Positions 1 through 16,727 of a stretch of DNA of 16,727 bases are shown piece after piece (position 1 is the first letter of the stretch; every line of letters starts with the position of its first letter). The notes under the pieces were generated by a model. It ran no database searches. It was not told the origin of the DNA and saw only the letters and a list, made by a program, of their open reading frames with translations. This stretch comes from a virus. The stretch lies in the IMG/VR virus record IMGVR_UViG_3300026549_000335, positions 1 through 16,727 of that record. One strand, 5' to 3'. The translations under genes were made by a program, and so were the position numbers.

Positions 1-132
1 GGGGTCGTTTCGAACGTCGAGATTTTTGGTACTTCCCTAGCACTGCGCAGTGGTAAAGTGGTGACGCGTTGCAGTGGTACAGCGTTAGCACGTCAGAGTG
101 GTACCGTGAGCGCACGAAGTTAGTTGTGTCTA
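1..132. repeat. Left inverted terminal repeat (132 bp)
   Basis: The reverse complement of 16596-16727 matches 1-132 at 129/132 positions. Mismatches are at left positions 82, 97 and 111; the outer 81 nt are identical. The repeat starts GGGG. I count 66/120 G+C in the first 120 nt, against an AT-rich interior. Confidence 0.95.
27..122. repeat. Degenerate 24-bp tandem repeat x4 inside the left ITR
   Basis: TGGTAC/TGGTAA starts at 27, 51, 75 and 99, an exact 24-bp spacing. Units 1 and 3 share 16/24 positions, including TAGCAC. Confidence 0.8.
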
Positions 133-134
133 TA

Positions 135-169
135 TAAAAATGGCAAGTACTAAATTAGTACCTGCCATT
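135..169 (-). terminator. Rho-independent terminator of the late operon
   Basis: 13-14 bp stem at 140-152/156-168. Its single A-C mismatch (146/162) becomes G-U in minus-sense RNA. Minus-sense UUUUUAUA follows (plus 131-139). It lies 27 nt downstream of the appendage gene stop. Confidence 0.8.
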
Positions 170-6636: not shown

Positions 6637-6957
6637 TTAGCCCTCTCTTTCTTGAAATAAATCATCAAAGGAAATTTCCTTACCATCATCAGTAATATCT
6701 TCCTTCTGTTCCTTAATTACTGTTGCAGGGTCTGTGCCTGCACTGCCTTCAAAAAATCGTGCTTTATATTTTTCTCTCCACTCATTGTCATTCTGCTCAT
6801 ATTTTGCTTTCCAATCAGTGGTATCTTTTGCACGTGTTTCAAGGTCATTGAATGTATCAGTAAAATTCTCAATCATAGCAAGTGTATTATCATCAGCGTT
6901 ATCGCCTGCTAATCCTCTTACTGTATTCATAAATTCATCATGTGAAAGTACTGCCAT
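6637..6957 (-). CDS. Scaffolding protein (gp7-like, small and acidic)
   Basis: I prefer the ATG at 6957 (MAVLSHDEF), which has RBS AAGAGGTGA. The track start at 7005 is a TTG overlapping the previous gene. The protein is about 106 aa, highly charged and helical-looking, and lies directly upstream of the capsid gene. Confidence 0.55.
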   Translation of the reverse strand: MAVLSHDEFMNTVRGLAGDNADDNTLAMIENFTDTFNDLETRAKDTTDWKAKYEQNDNEWREKYKARFFEGSAGTDPATVIKEQKEDITDDGKEISFDDLFQEREG

Positions 6958-6977
6958 TTTTCTCACCTCTTTTCTAT

Positions 6978-7565
6978 TTAAAATAATGGCCTGCACATCA
7001 TCCAAACCGGCATAGCTTTTCGCTTAGTTGGTGTGGGCGGTGTGGGTGGTGTGGGTGGTGTGGGTGGTGTAACTCCAGTTAGGTATTCATACCAGTTACT
7101 AGCATATGTTAATCTCTTGGTTAATGCTGTAACTCCTGCTCGTTCTCTTTCATATAAATAAGCTTTGCAGGCTTCTGCAACATCAGTTAATTTTGAAAAC
7201 TCTGCACCAGTATAACCATATCCCAGTGACGGCTTAGGTATCCATTGTCCACCATATCCGTTTATTATTTCATCCCACATTAACTGTGTTTGTATTTCAC
7301 CAGTAGCCCAGTCAGAACCTTGTGCGCTTGCATAGTCTGTTAAATTGGTGTGTGGTGTCCACTGTATTAGGCCCCATCCGTCACCGCCTTTTTCTTTACA
7401 ACCAGGGTTTATTTGTGATTCTTGTTGTAAATTTCCTAGCATACCTGAAATGCTCTCAATGGTAAAACCTTTACTATTGAAATAACCATAAAATTCAGTA
7501 GCATTATTTTCAAGTTCTGTTTGTGTCAAACCAGGGTCTAAACCTATTTTAACTATCCATGCCAT
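6978..7565 (-). CDS. Tail-associated lysozyme-like peptidoglycan hydrolase (gp13 N-terminal-domain type) with C-terminal PT repeat
   Basis: The motif GMLGNLQQESQINPG...GDGWGLIQWTP matches the phage tail lysozyme signature. A (TPP)n linker sits at the C-terminus. The start overlaps the endolysin stop (TAATG). Confidence 0.7.
   Translation of the reverse strand: MAWIVKIGLDPGLTQTELENNATEFYGYFNSKGFTIESISGMLGNLQQESQINPGCKEKGGDGWGLIQWTPHTNLTDYASAQGSDWATGEIQTQLMWDEIINGYGGQWIPKPSLGYGYTGAEFSKLTDVAEACKAYLYERERAGVTALTKRLTYASNWYEYLTGVTPPTPPTPPTPPTPTKRKAMPVWMMCRPLF
7030..7070. repeat. 9-bp tandem repeat GGTGTGGGY, about 4.5 copies (encodes TPPTPPTPPTPPTP)
   Basis: Direct reading of 7030-7070. Confidence 0.9.
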
Positions 7566-10272: not shown

Positions 10273-12216
10273 TCACCTCATTTCATATGTTGTGTCCACC
10301 AATAACACACCACCTTTAATTCTTTTTGGTAGTAATTTTCCAGGGACACATAAACCAATCTTAAAATCACTGTAGTCTCTTTTTGTTTCTAAGAATTTTA
10401 ATTCACTTTGTGTATAGTTATCACTCTCCTTTGCTTCATAACCCTGCATTGACTTGTTAAATAAATCTTTACATTTCTGTGGCATACCTGCACATTTAAT
10501 ATCATTATATGGTTCGTCAACAGGAACTAAATCATTGTGAGTTATGTGTTCTATATATGTTTTCTGCCTTGTAAAAATAGCTGTGTCCCAACTGCTTTCT
10601 AATTTCCAACAACAAAATTTAACAGGGTCTACTGTTATGCCTTTTATCTTATTAGCAGGTAAGTCACAATGTATACTGTCAGTGTCAGCGTAAATAAATC
10701 CTGCTTTATCTACACCATAGTAATTTTTTTGAGCAGCTGTTATCGTAAAGTTTCGCGCATAGGATGTTATTGCACTGCCCGTTGCTATATGTCCCACCTT
10801 TTTATTATTAGCAGGGACTATATAGAAACCAATACTTTCATCCTCTTTTACATATGCAACCTTAAAACTGCTGTTGGAACTACTAGCAAGTTTACCATAA
10901 AGGTTATTGAGAAACAGTTTTGCTTCTGTACGCTTTGCACCTTTGCTATTCATTTTAATTTCTGCATAATGATTGATATAATTATCAAAAATTCCTATAG
11001 CAGAATAAAACCAACAGCCGTCTAAGATTTCAAAATCAACTAGTTCATAGTGTTTTAACATTAGTTTATAATCTGTCATGGTTATTGTCATTATCTGTGC
11101 CGTGTCTTTTATATTGCCATTAATATCTTTATAGTATCTGTTATAATTTCCATTTTTGTCTAATACATCACTAGTTGTTAATGACTCTGTGCCTTTATAT
11201 AAATGGTTACCTTTTATCTGAATAAATGGTAACATATTTTCTTTGATATAAAAGCGTGTTTTTATTCTTAAAAAGTAATATTTATTTTCGCCTATAGCTT
11301 CATCAGGTATTATATTACCTTTCCAAAAATATGGTTTACCTATCGGAAAATAATTACCACTTTGAGAGTGCATCATACTAGGATATAAAGAGTTCACATC
11401 TGCTGTTACACCATTATGTCTAACTATGTTTTCTTTTCCTTTTACTAAATAGCACCAACCACCTCTATAACTGTGACGTATATATTCGTCAGCATTTGAC
11501 GAACCATAAATATTTTTATCAAGTGTAAATTCATCAAGTGCAGGAAATAAGTCATTATAATCATAAGCACCTAGTGAGTTTTTATATTCTGCTACACAAC
11601 ATGAACCTATTGTAAGTTTATCATGTCTATCATTGAATAACTGTTCTAATGCTTCTTTAACTACTAATACGTCATTAGCTATATAACGTTTTTCGTCGTC
11701 AGTTATATTACATCCTGCATATCTATAACCATTATATTCCATGTCTAATTTTTGATGTTTTGTTTTAAAAGATTTACCTATTTGTTTTACCGAAAATGGT
11801 AATAGTTTTAAGCTATCTCTTAATTCGATAAAATGGTTATTAACTTTAATAGTAACCATATACCATTGACCCATAGATGATATAGTATATCTGAAAGTAT
11901 TATTTTTCATATATTTTTCTTTTATAAATTCACCTTGAGTGCCCTCATCATTAAATGACTCATATGCCTGTTCATATTTTAAATCTGTTAATAAATATGA
12001 TAGCCAAAAATTTCCATCAAATTTAAGGTTATGATAATAAGCTATTATGTCACACTCTAACGACTTAAAATAATTAAACTGTTCATCTATAGAATGAAAA
12101 ATTTGAACGTTCTCTGTGTATAATTCTACACTTGCACTAGCCCATACTTCTGTAGATTTTTGACCCTCATATACTGTTGTTTCAAAATCACACATAAATT
12201 TCCTATAGTTTCTCAT
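10273..12216 (-). CDS. Protein-primed family-B DNA polymerase (phi29 gp2-like)
   Basis: Exonuclease motifs: Exo I CDFETT, Exo II HNLKFDGNF, Exo III YIANDV. Polymerase motifs: A DVNSLYPS, B KLFLNNLYGK, C YADTDS, and KxY QKTYIEH. 647 aa. Confidence 0.95.
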   Translation of the reverse strand: MRNYRKFMCDFETTVYEGQKSTEVWASASVELYTENVQIFHSIDEQFNYFKSLECDIIAYYHNLKFDGNFWLSYLLTDLKYEQAYESFNDEGTQGEFIKEKYMKNNTFRYTISSMGQWYMVTIKVNNHFIELRDSLKLLPFSVKQIGKSFKTKHQKLDMEYNGYRYAGCNITDDEKRYIANDVLVVKEALEQLFNDRHDKLTIGSCCVAEYKNSLGAYDYNDLFPALDEFTLDKNIYGSSNADEYIRHSYRGGWCYLVKGKENIVRHNGVTADVNSLYPSMMHSQSGNYFPIGKPYFWKGNIIPDEAIGENKYYFLRIKTRFYIKENMLPFIQIKGNHLYKGTESLTTSDVLDKNGNYNRYYKDINGNIKDTAQIMTITMTDYKLMLKHYELVDFEILDGCWFYSAIGIFDNYINHYAEIKMNSKGAKRTEAKLFLNNLYGKLASSSNSSFKVAYVKEDESIGFYIVPANNKKVGHIATGSAITSYARNFTITAAQKNYYGVDKAGFIYADTDSIHCDLPANKIKGITVDPVKFCCWKLESSWDTAIFTRQKTYIEHITHNDLVPVDEPYNDIKCAGMPQKCKDLFNKSMQGYEAKESDNYTQSELKFLETKRDYSDFKIGLCVPGKLLPKRIKGGVLLVDTTYEMR

Positions 12217-12626
12217 ATATTATCTAAATCAGTAAACCCAAAATATTCGTTAATATCATTAGATTGTATTGCTGAAATACGTGACATATCGTGATTCGAC
12301 AGTAAGGGTATTAAATCTTCTGTTTTTGCCTGCACTACTTCTGAATATACACTTTCATTTATACTGTCTATTGCTGTTATAATTTCTGTTTCATTTTGTT
12401 GTAAATAATATTCATATTGCTCTTTTCCAAAATCTTCCTGCATTTGTTTCATAATTCCTAAAACAGTATAGTAAAAATTTTCAAGATTATAGTCTATAGC
12501 TTCACCACCATACGTGTATGTTTGCTTTTTACTAGGTAGCGCTTGCAACCTTGAAATAATACTATCTGTAACTGTATAGGTTTCTGCGCTTTGTCTTTGT
12601 GATATTTCTGTTTGTAAATCCTGCAA
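12213..12626 (-). CDS. Candidate terminal protein (137 aa), assigned by synteny only
   Basis: TTG start at 12626 with a strong RBS (GGAGAGGAGAAAAAGG). The stop overlaps the polymerase ATG (ATGA). It occupies the phi29 gene 3 position, between the SSB-like gene and the polymerase. I recognise no motif in it. Confidence 0.35.
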   Translation of the reverse strand: MQDLQTEISQRQSAETYTVTDSIISRLQALPSKKQTYTYGGEAIDYNLENFYYTVLGIMKQMQEDFGKEQYEYYLQQNETEIITAIDSINESVYSEVVQAKTEDLIPLLSNHDMSRISAIQSNDINEYFGFTDLDNI

Positions 12627-13081: not shown

Positions 13082-13414
13082 TTATTCTGCTTCTGTCTGC
13101 TCTGTTGTTTCTATGCCAGCCTGCTCTGTTTTAATCTCTTTACGTGTAGCAGGGTCAAGTATTAATGCACCTGCGATAAAATCTGCTTCATCCATACCGT
13201 AAAGTTCGTTTACTTCTTTGAGTTCACGAATTGCAACGATAGTACATTCGTCAGTGTTATAAAGTTTTGATACTTTCTTTAATGCCTTGTCTTTTTCGAG
13301 AATTTTACCACTAAGTATAAAATCCTGTTCAAAAGTATCTGCTGTCTGTGGATTTACACATAACGCTTTTACTGAAGTTGAAATAATTGTACGTGTGACC
13401 ATTGGTTTTCTCAT
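13082..13414 (-). CDS. Histone-like dsDNA-binding protein, phi29 p6-like (paralog A)
   Basis: 110 aa (p6 is about 104 aa) with RBS AAAGGAGA. Three features are reminiscent of p6 as I recall it: the N-terminal MVTRTIISTSVKAL, the central ELYGMDEADFIAGALIL, and the acidic tail TEQAGIETTEQTEAE. It lies directly upstream of the SSB-like gene. Confidence 0.5.
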   Translation of the reverse strand: MRKPMVTRTIISTSVKALCVNPQTADTFEQDFILSGKILEKDKALKKVSKLYNTDECTIVAIRELKEVNELYGMDEADFIAGALILDPATRKEIKTEQAGIETTEQTEAE

Positions 13415-15758: not shown

Positions 15759-16040
15759 TTATTTTACCTCCTTCCTGGTTTCATTGTCAAGTTCTACAGC
15801 GTACTGTAAAAACATATTCTCTGACATACCATATAGCTTTTCACTAACTTCTACATTTTCTAATTTTATAAACTTACAACTTGGATTTTCTGCAATAAAT
15901 TGCTTTTCAATTTCTTTATCAGTTGGTGCGCCGACTGTTTCAAGTACATCCTCTCTGACTTCATTATTCTCAAGGTCAAAATAAATGACCTCATATTTTG
16001 TTACCTTAATAGTTCTGGTTACCATTTTCGATTTTCTCAT
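15759..16040 (-). CDS. p6-like dsDNA-binding protein paralog B (93 aa, no acidic tail)
   Basis: I prefer the ATG at 16040 (MRKSKMVTRTI), which has RBS AAAAGGAGA. It aligns with 13082-13414: MRKSKMVTRTI against MRKPMVTRTI, and KLYGMSENMFLQYAVELDNETRKEVK against ELYGMDEADFIAGALILDPATRKEIK. The track start at 16133 runs through a terminator hairpin. Confidence 0.6.
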   Translation of the reverse strand: MRKSKMVTRTIKVTKYEVIYFDLENNEVREDVLETVGAPTDKEIEKQFIAENPSCKFIKLENVEVSEKLYGMSENMFLQYAVELDNETRKEVK

Positions 16041-16472: not shown

Positions 16473-16527
16473 AGTACTCGCTTAGAGTACCCCTTTCCTT
16501 TATCTTTAAGTACATTATATAGGTCAG

Positions 16528-16569: not shown

Positions 16570-16595
16570 TTTTATATAGTACTATAGTACTAAGT

Positions 16596-16727
16596 TAGAC
16601 ACAACTAACTTCGTGCACTCACGGTACCACGCTGACGTGCTAACGTTGTACCACTGCAACGCGTCACCACTTTACCACTGCGCAGTGCTAGGGAAGTACC
16701 AAAAATCTCGACGTTCGAAACGACCCC
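16596..16727. repeat. Right inverted terminal repeat (132 bp)
   Basis: Mirror copy of 1-132, with mismatches at 16646, 16631 and 16617. The window ends in CCCC. Confidence 0.95.
16606..16701. repeat. Degenerate 24-bp tandem repeat x4 inside the right ITR
   Basis: Mirror image of 27-122, by ITR symmetry. Confidence 0.8.

Follow-up and report, generated by a model that had tools for sequence, protein, structure and literature searches.

Both inverted terminal repeats (ITRs) of the window, meaning the whole stretch of 16,727 bp analysed here, carry a literal array of four 24-bp units. This array is real and non-random, and comparison with related termini establishes it as a biological, evolutionarily conserved and dynamic element. 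Our preferred reading, to which we assign a probability of about 45%, is that the array represents a phased, sequence-written nucleation platform for the origin complex of a p6-like protein.

The terminal arrays of a phi29-like phage genome

The 16,727-bp window represents the complete genome of a phi29-like podovirus, a gut phage. Its ORFs matched PF05352, PF25622, PF20934, PF05894 and PF03175, all above the Pfam cut-off and in agreement with PHROGs. The encoded proteins include a phi29-type connector, a lower collar, the tail knob gp9, the major capsid protein, the gp16 packaging ATPase and a protein-primed PolB. The set that characterizes phi29-like podoviruses (connector, capsid, gp9, gp16 and PolB on a linear genome of ~16–20 kb with ITRs) was therefore found in full. 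When the full-length window was compared by megablast with the 50,697 deposited phage genomes of INPHARED, no match and no near relative appeared. According to the polymerase, the nearest cultured relatives are the Clostridium phages CS229P1-3 (Clostridium_Q symbiosum), with 63% identity, and uncultured human-faecal phages are also among the closest.

The protein-primed family-B DNA polymerase (10273..12216, minus strand) was identified by PF03175 (E=1.2e-39) and phrog_1907 (E=7e-126), and it is 33% identical to the phi29 polymerase. The ORF immediately upstream of it (12213..12626, minus strand) is, from its position, a candidate terminal protein; it had no family match in Pfam or PHROGs and did not resemble the protein that CS229P1 encodes at the equivalent position. 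For the prohead pRNA gene, no Rfam pRNA match was observed in the window at E<=1. An intrinsic terminator of the late operon (139..169, minus strand), composed of a 14-bp stem and a T tract, adjoins the left ITR.

The left ITR (1..132, plus strand) and the right ITR (16596..16727, minus strand) form a 132-nt inverted repeat with arms 98% complementary. The right copy is the reverse complement of the left apart from three positions (ITR positions 82, 97 and 111), all of them outside the TGGTA motif, and relatives begin at the identical GGGG. The outermost part of each ITR is a terminal non-repeat block, GGGGTCGTTTCGAACGTCGAGATTTT (1..26, plus strand; mirrored at 16702–16727), in which a terminal G reiteration is followed by a lineage-specific block and a T5 tract; this block is conserved in lineage-1 relatives. 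The array itself (27..122, plus strand) comprises the units 27–50, 51–74, 75–98 and 99–122, each opening with TGGTA(C/A), and its mirror copy lies in the right ITR (16606..16701, minus strand). It is followed by the inner ITR boundary GTTGTGTCTA (123..132, plus strand; mirrored at 16596–16605), whose anchor AAGTTAGTTGTGTCTA is conserved in relatives. The array therefore accounts for 96 of the 132 ITR bases, with no repeat units in the outer 26 nt and the inner 10 nt. The four TGGTA motifs start at 27, 51, 75 and 99, and the TACCA motifs of the other end start at 16625, 16649, 16673 and 16697. The exact 24-bp spacing, its mirroring and the 24-mers as quoted in the initial annotation were all reproduced, as was the identity of units 1 and 3 at 16 of 24 positions when checked by hand. 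A G+C content of about 55% within an AT-rich genome was likewise confirmed, with 55.2% in the array (27–122) and 53.0% in the ITR, compared with 31.5% in the remaining genome.

The non-random character of the array was evident from shuffling, a check that the initial annotation had proposed. When the ITR was shuffled 20,000 times with its dinucleotides preserved, four equally spaced copies of a 5-mer never arose. Over lags 5–45, the autocorrelation is highest at lag 24 (0.435), a value reached in 58 of 20,000 shuffles when the whole ITR was shuffled and in none of 20,000 when only 27–122 was. The z values by lag were 6.0 (24), 5.4 (48), 4.0 (8), 2.9 (16) and -2.9 (12), and the 24-mer resembles three diverged 8-mers (~YGKTRMMG), not two 12-mers. 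The description of the array as a degenerate tandem repeat holds, since Tandem Repeats Finder did not report it even at score 30.

Other features of the region were also searched. A dyad scan identified a perfect 12-bp palindrome, CACTGCGCAGTG (41..52, without strand), which straddles the junction of units 1 and 2 and is mirrored in the right ITR; GCACTGCGCAGTGGTA is kept in both lineages. Single-strand folding of the ITR was no more stable than that of shuffles (z=0.71), and no promoter or terminator was found within the array. GTAC was also found to be enriched just inside both ITRs.

Conservation, unit turnover and periodicity at related termini

Relatives were collected from IMG/VR by a polymerase-based search, which provided 80 related contigs, and by an ATPase-based search, which provided 80 whole contigs. 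Several contigs begin at exactly GGGGTCGTTTCGAA, as the window does. In contig L044, an Illumina adapter (…CTCTTCCGATCT) is joined straight to the terminal GGGG, so GGGG marks the physical end of the DNA. Units in one phase, defined by a 24-nt register from the conserved inner boundary, were observed at 43 distinct related termini. Across these termini, 118 intervals between successive TGGTAC-like motifs were measured, and 95 of them are 24 bp long. The others are mostly explained either by a second TGGTAC-like motif within a unit (8+16, 11+13) or by a TGGTAC in the terminal block of the sister lineage (21 bp), and a few more measure 23 or 37–70 bp.

The number of units ranges from 2 to 5, and units are always gained or lost in whole 24-bp steps. 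Unit 2 is absent in L006/L243 and duplicated in L044, and in L015 a duplicated unit 3 stands in place of unit 2. The head-to-tail copies and the copy-number polymorphism among relatives are those of a tandem repeat. Equal counts at both ends were found in L243 (3), L247 (3) and L213 (5), which indicates that unit changes are homogenised between the ends, a behaviour that functional ITRs of protein-primed replicons would be expected to show. L214 has 2 and 4 units at its two ends, a discrepancy that may result from assembly collapse. Every terminus reaching the terminal block retains at least two units. In the sister lineage (polymerase 91%), five units stand behind a wholly different terminal block (CCCTGGTAC…TTTTT). 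As a further element, TCGAA motifs resembling Spo0A boxes were considered within the outermost 26 nt and rejected, as they are absent from the terminus of this sister lineage.

Six unit classes were distinguished, in which GGTA (positions 2–5) and C17 are invariant. Positions 14–17 read G[CT][AG]C, positions 7–13 and 18–23 have drifted, and the units are only ~50–67% alike. Within lineages, the number of variants per position was 2–5 in GGTA versus 1–7 elsewhere, only slightly rarer in the motif. Purifying selection is evidenced by the deep comparison between units, not by the shallow comparison within lineages.

The motif also occurs outside the array-bearing lineages. A single GGTACA is located ~24 nt from the end in the distant relatives L054, L056, L063, L067 and L068, and nt 8–16 of the phi29 right end read GGTACAGCG, identical to positions 2–10 of unit 3 in the window. 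On the strength of these recurrences, the array may have arisen by tandem amplification of an old origin box. Alignment failed to establish such an amplification; the MAFFT alignment did not support deriving unit 1 from the GGTACACCATTTCCCCATT box by condensation, an idea that stays at the level of speculation.

In distant relatives, the period was analysed through autocorrelation z-spectra of 22 distinct complete termini belonging to 15 sequence-unrelated groups. In nt 1–132 from the end, the mean z was 1.75 at lag 23, 1.19 at lag 24, 1.0 at lag 25 and 0.8 at lag 46. After removal of the conserved terminal box (nt 41–172), lags 23 and 24 gave 1.30 and 1.03, accompanied by 0.82 at lag 11, 0.58 at lag 12 and ~0.6–0.7 at lags 46–48. 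Further from the end, the mean z at lags 23 and 24 was 0.5 and 0.8 (nt 133–264), 0.1 and 0.4 (nt 265–396) and 0.15 and 0.18 (nt 401–532); the 23–24-bp signal of the distant relatives is limited to the terminal ~170 nt and weaker inward. Under independence, the standard error of the 15-group mean is ~0.26, and the terminal peak amounts to several times this value. This terminal periodicity is only suggestive, because the independence of the groups is not guaranteed and coding regions reach mean z maxima of 0.7–0.9 at multiples of three. In phi29, peaks at lags 25 and 49 (z 2.2–2.7) were seen at the left end and not at the right end. The initial annotation had asked for an autocorrelation analysis of relatives, and this analysis returned a terminus-specific signal of ~23–24 bp even where the sequence is unrelated. 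A phase that is kept while the sequence drifts, and that is literal only in the lineage of the window, is the pattern that the p6 hypothesis predicts, and at this level the agreement is suggestive.

The p6-like proteins and their relation to the array

In phi29, one p6 dimer is bound per 24 bp, with monomers 12 bp apart (PMC4974454, PMC10899789), and p6 wraps the DNA into a right-handed superhelix of ~63 bp per turn (PMC4974454, PMC10899789, PMC4150772). The preferred recognition regions in phi29 are 46–68 (left) and 62–125 (right), where a bendability pattern is read and not the sequence (PMC4974454); what p6 recognises has been described as “a 24 bp phased bendability pattern” (PMC4150772). 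The premise from which the array was first interpreted, namely 24-bp p6 dimers with structural recognition, is backed by these three studies (PMC4974454, PMC10899789, PMC4150772). Furthermore, concatemers of one 24-bp phi29 sequence (C24) serve as ideal p6 substrates (PMC10899789).

Two ORFs of the window encode homologues of this protein. Paralogue A (110 aa; 13082..13414, minus strand) is a p6-like dsDNA-binding protein supported by phrog_6370 and by profile and fold matches to 8PW4, and paralogue B (15759..16040, minus strand) has 93 aa from the ATG at 16040, with the ORF open to 16133. Paralogue A matched phrog_6370 end to end (E=8.5e-6; 1–99/1–97) and paralogue B at E=0.002; phi29 p6 itself matches this profile at 3.5e-40, which identifies phrog_6370 as the phi29 p6 family. 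The two paralogues are 27–28% identical and have the motifs MVTRTI and LYGM..F..A..LD..TRKE in common, and an iterated HMM places B in the same family as A. Paralogue A combines a basic N-terminus (MRKPMVTRT) with an acidic C-terminal tail (TEQAGIETTEQTEAE). Pairwise comparison of ORFs A and B with phi29 p6 and the PDB by BLASTP and phmmer gave no significant match, and the p6 assignment therefore required profiles and structure. A clade-only HMM, built without phi29, recovered phi29 p6 at E~1e-3 among 4,688 ORFs in a colinear, full-length alignment. In addition, a 12-sequence profile had 8PW4_A (phi29 p6) as its best match among 177,635 PDB sequences (E=0.038).

The AlphaFold2 model of paralogue A (132-sequence alignment) reached a pLDDT of 84.3. 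Foldseek ranked 8PW4_A first for this model (E=1.9e-3, prob 1.00), with a moderate TM of 0.54 over the whole 83-residue chain, and the runner-up had E=0.25. This match is meaningful because the p6 fold has been reported as unique in the PDB, without structural neighbours (PMC10899789). The gene order p6-like / small ORF / small ORF / polymerase also parallels phi29 genes 6-5-3-2. Full-length profile similarity, the p6 fold, a size of ~100 aa, the charge pattern and the gene position all correspond to the p6 family, and on the profile, HMM, fold and gene-order evidence both ORFs were accepted as p6 homologues. The assignment is well grounded, and the two p6-like proteins of the initial annotation stand, both by PHROG profile and A also by predicted structure. 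At E<=0.001, the family spans 5,507 database clusters, and Pfam contains no model for it.

On the DNA side, the array occupies nt 27–122 from each end, which places it within ~200 bp of both ends and at distances comparable to those of the phi29 p6 regions (46–68 and 62–125), and its period of exactly 24 bp matches, as a DNA period alone, the repeat of one p6 dimer per 24 bp. The 12-bp sub-period is depleted in the array (lag 12, z=-2.9), with an 8/16-bp sub-period instead, and the dyad scan revealed no dyad-symmetry periodicity at 12 bp. Periodicity of W/S, WW, SS and YR, all crude proxies, did not exceed that of shuffles at either 12 or 24 bp. At the left end of phi29, the same proxies detected YR at 24 bp (p=0.001) and WW at 12 bp (p=0.004); at its right end they detected no periodicity. 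By these crude proxies, neither a 12-bp monomer sub-period nor phased anisotropic bendability was found in the array. Two 12-bp half-sites per unit were also considered, given the relative conservation of GYRC at positions 14–17, and rejected because lag-12, dyad and W/S/YR periodicity is absent. A separate observation is that a G+C-rich tract is unexpected for minor-groove compression by p6.

Distant relatives whose polymerase or ATPase is 65–70% identical also possess both p6 paralogues, in which the N-terminal DNA-contact motif MVTRT is near-invariant. Their ITRs of 26–76 bp, beginning TTTGCCCCTTTAA…TTTCCCCATT, contain no literal array, and the long G+C-rich ITRs of CS229P1 and L079 are without 24-bp repeats. 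Within the clade, p6-like function thus does not depend on the array. The possibility that paralogue B is specific to array-bearing genomes was ruled out, since both paralogues are present in most distant relatives. The sequence-specified p6 scaffold put forward in the initial annotation is thus upheld in part: the p6 homology and the conserved, end-specific 24-bp phase speak for it, and the 12-bp bendability sub-period was not found.

Explanations for the array and their significance

Under the preferred reading, the array would be the origin-proximal element of both replication origins of a protein-primed linear genome. A p6-like protein (paralogue A, possibly also B) would polymerise on it, one dimer per 24-bp unit, and the complex would wrap the DNA into a p6-type superhelix. 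Such wrapping could help to open the adjacent T tract and the outermost 26 bp, and/or bring in the terminal-protein/polymerase complex. We infer three things here: reading of the array by the p6-like protein, occupancy of each unit by one dimer, and a stimulation of initiation by this binding. A spacing of 24 bp corresponds to 2.3 helical turns, so successive motifs lie on different faces of straight B-DNA; this phasing would suit a wrapped superhelical complex over side-by-side binding. We also put forward, tentatively and with some doubt, that a p6-type viral “histone” may be positioned by direct sequence readout, with an ancestral single GGTACA box amplified in this gut-phage lineage into a 24-bp-phased array of variable copy number that sets the register of the filament against the genome end.

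The phi29 p6 origin complex offers the closest comparison. Common to both are a linear genome replicated by protein priming, a p6 homologue whose gene lies upstream of those for the terminal protein and the polymerase, a signal within ~125 bp of both ends, a 24-bp period equal to one p6 dimer, and a short adjoining terminal region to be opened. phi29 differs in its 6-bp ITRs, with two ends unlike in sequence, whereas the window has an ITR of 132 bp. In phi29, the signal lies in a pattern of bendability, has a 12-bp monomer sub-period and involves no repeated sequence, whereas that of the window is a literal G+C-rich direct repeat with an invariant GGTA, an 8-bp sub-period and no detected bendability periodicity. 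The C24 concatemers (PMC10899789), on which a repetitive p6 nucleocomplex is formed, likewise consist of head-to-tail 24-bp units. They differ as exact repeats of an A+T-rich phi29 sequence, in contrast to window units that are ~50–67% alike and share no C24 sequence.

Other protein-primed replicons show partial parallels. As in the window, the ITRs of Cp-1-type phages, adenovirus and PRD1 (~100–350 bp) contain the origin, with auxiliary protein sites internal to the core origin; the auxiliary origin of adenovirus (NFI/Oct-1 sites) differs in having single host-factor sites. PRD1 also has a terminal base reiteration like the GGGG of the window, which is suited to sliding-back. The iterons of R6K, P1 and the lambda O-some are several direct repeats (3–5) beside a region to melt, where cooperative binding bends the DNA. 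Iterons are usually 17–22 bp long, spaced at ~21–22 bp (two turns) and bound by a dedicated Rep initiator. The window resembles these origins in its few direct repeats beside a region that must melt, and departs from them in its 24-bp period, its protein priming from the ends and the absence of a Rep-like family from every ORF of the window, so it does not correspond to a Rep-iteron origin. In the open-access literature, no report of a phased tandem array in the ITRs of phi29-like or other protein-primed replicons was found.

The units might instead be iteron-like TGGTAC sites (core GTAC palindrome) for another sequence-specific factor, the 24 bp being the footprint of that factor, which could be an early protein of unknown fold, the terminal-protein/polymerase complex or a host protein. 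We regard this as unlikely. The conserved part of the unit is a discrete 5–6-bp motif, typical of direct base readout, GGTACA in distant relatives and GGTACAGCG in phi29 suggest an old origin box that was later amplified, and the GTAC enrichment just inside both ITRs is in line with this explanation. The lambda O-some, with four iterons at roughly 24-bp centres, is a further parallel. About ten early ORFs are without assignable function and could include such a factor; however, no helix-turn-helix or other recognisable DNA-binding domain was found among the early ORFs besides the p6 paralogues, which are the only recognisable dsDNA binders. Sites 24 bp apart also lie on different helix faces, which is awkward for simple cooperative dimers. 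The report that phi29 p6 does not read sequence (PMC4974454) favours another factor.

A neutral higher-order tandem repeat (minisatellite), produced by slippage or unequal pairing in the ITR and kept by end homogenisation, with the 24 bp coincidental, appears rather improbable. Three degenerate 8-mers per 24-mer are typical of a higher-order repeat history, and the copy number is polymorphic (2–5; 2 vs 4 in L214); nevertheless, all termini reaching the terminal block keep at least two units, and the array is situated where the non-coding DNA of this 16.7-kb genome is most constrained. Recent substitutions fall on motif and non-motif positions alike, although the units are old (~50–67% alike) and GGTA with the 24-bp spacing is retained in two sister lineages with different termini. 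Distant relatives manage without the array, yet the cryptic 23–24-bp periodicity at their termini argues that the period itself matters. Phased 5-mers at 24 bp are also common in viromes, since many tandem repeats have periods dividing 24. When IMG/VR was scanned for TGGTA three or four times at 24-bp spacing, nearly all contigs among the matches listed were unrelated, many of them giant viruses, and these unrelated contigs presumably contain mostly tandem repeats with periods dividing 24.

An artefact of assembly or library preparation would involve concatemerised adapters or barcodes, or a contig end that had been duplicated. It is suggested by a G+C-rich block sharply unlike the genome and by adapter remnants at the ends of the IMG/VR relatives L044, L018 and L058, and is effectively refuted by the three differences between the two ITR copies, by arrays with substitutions and unit gains or losses in several metagenomes (3300045988, 3300044856, 3300029203), by the adapter of L044 joined directly to GGGG as the physical end, and by units that are non-identical, unlike synthetic linkers.

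The p6 family, earlier thought to be confined to Salasmaviridae and some Enterococcus sequences (PMC11476376), is now extended to a very large gut-phage protein family (>5,500 clusters) without a Pfam domain. The way in which p6 finds the ends has so far been described only as a 24-bp phased bendability, without a consensus sequence. A natural origin with a spelled-out 24-bp phase would offer a handle on nucleation, on the register to the terminus and on the number of dimers needed for opening, and the invariant motif and the natural variants of 2–5 units for such a study already exist. If direct readout is true, origin strength would be tunable by the gain or loss of units, and these phages would provide a natural system in which the phase of the origin nucleoprotein is encoded literally in the DNA. 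If the array binds something else, it would represent a new origin element of abundant human-gut or sewage phi29-like phages.

Internal organisation of the terminal array

The four 24-bp units of the terminal array (27-122) contain a shorter periodicity. When the autocorrelation of the array was compared with that of shuffled sequences, significant sub-periods were observed at 8 bp (z=4.0) and 16 bp (z=2.9), together with a 12-bp self-similarity below expectation (z=-2.9). The 24-bp unit is effectively a higher-order repeat composed of three degenerate 8-mers with the consensus YGKTRMMG. The junction between units 1 and 2 lies within a perfect 12-bp palindrome (CACTGCGCAGTG, 41-52), which is mirrored in the right inverted terminal repeat (ITR). 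The element GCACTGCGCAGTGGTA was kept in both lineages with the array. Among sister lineages, an end block of approximately 25 nt has been exchanged, with the array retained. Long ITRs were also identified elsewhere in the clade, in the Clostridium phage CS229P1 (L082, both ends) and in the related genome L079 (nt 1-150), where they are very G+C-rich within A+T-rich genomes. The 24-bp repeat is absent from these long ITRs, and part of the left terminus appears to be missing from the CS229P1 record.

Illumina TruSeq or Nextera adapter sequence was left at the ends of IMG/VR contigs, including L044 (nt 1-22), L018 (nt 1-48), L058 (nt 1-33) and L011 (nt 1-2). These remnants serve here as proof of a physical terminus, yet they represent contamination of public records. 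In the related contig L214, the array comprises two units at one end versus four at the other, while L238 and L028 exhibit rearranged ends. Such unequal or chimeric arrays in some metagenomic assemblies reflect either true heterogeneity or the collapse of repeats by short-read assemblers.

Sequences flanking the ITRs and associated genes

Immediately internal to both ITRs, GTAC is over-represented: 6 sites fall within the first 500 nt and another 8 within the last 254 nt (from 16474). Those near the left ITR include the stem of the left-end terminator (139-169), and those near the right ITR include 2.2 copies of TATAGTAC (16575-16592) and a GTACTC/GAGTAC hairpin (16474-16490) that closely precedes the first early gene. 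Two further repeats were observed in the interior of the genome: a two-copy 24-bp repeat with GTACCA inside it, located within the lower-collar gene (2120-2166), and a 9-bp tandem repeat, TGGTGTGGG, present in 4.7 copies (7029-7070) at the meeting point of three ORFs, two on the minus strand (6637-7005 and 6978-7565) and one on the plus strand (6734-7015).

A diverged pair of paralogues (13082-13414 and 15759-16040) of p6, the origin DNA-binding protein of phi29, is kept across nearly the whole clade, as compared in L049-L080. One copy is located close to the polymerase gene and the other in the end-proximal early operon. The p6-like family has no Pfam domain and numbers over 5,500 clusters in the databases.

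The position of the terminal protein is occupied by an ORF of only 137 aa (12213-12626), which had no match in family searches and does not resemble the 222-aa protein that takes this position in CS229P1. Homology does not identify the terminal protein in the window, and this ORF is a positional candidate. A phi29-type connector and gp16 ATPase are encoded, although at E<=1 the whole window gave no match to any Rfam family, prohead pRNA included. At the left end, only 63 nt separate the ITR from the last gene.

Terminal bases and a conserved box near the genome ends

The reiterated end bases vary by lineage, as GGGG (window 1-4), CCC or TTT, and AAA in phi29; reiterations were located at nt 1-3 in L024, L027 and L043, and at nt 1-3 in L054 and similar termini. 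All of these reiterations are compatible with sliding-back initiation. Further inward, the 16-mer ACACCATTTCCCCATT is identical between the right end of phi29 (L385, reverse complement, nt 24-39) and the terminus of the gut-phage contig L068 (nt 23-38), at an equivalent distance from the end. The polymerases of L068-type relatives share only about 33% identity with that of phi29. In most 'TTTGCCCCTTTAA' termini, the core TTTCCCCATT, preceded by GGTACA, was observed at about nt 24-43. Besides L385 and L068, the termini with this ACACCATTTCCCCATT/TTTCCCCATT box include L054, L056, L063, L075, L080, L264, L267, L270 and L277. The box looks like an ancient origin element kept among phi29-like phages.
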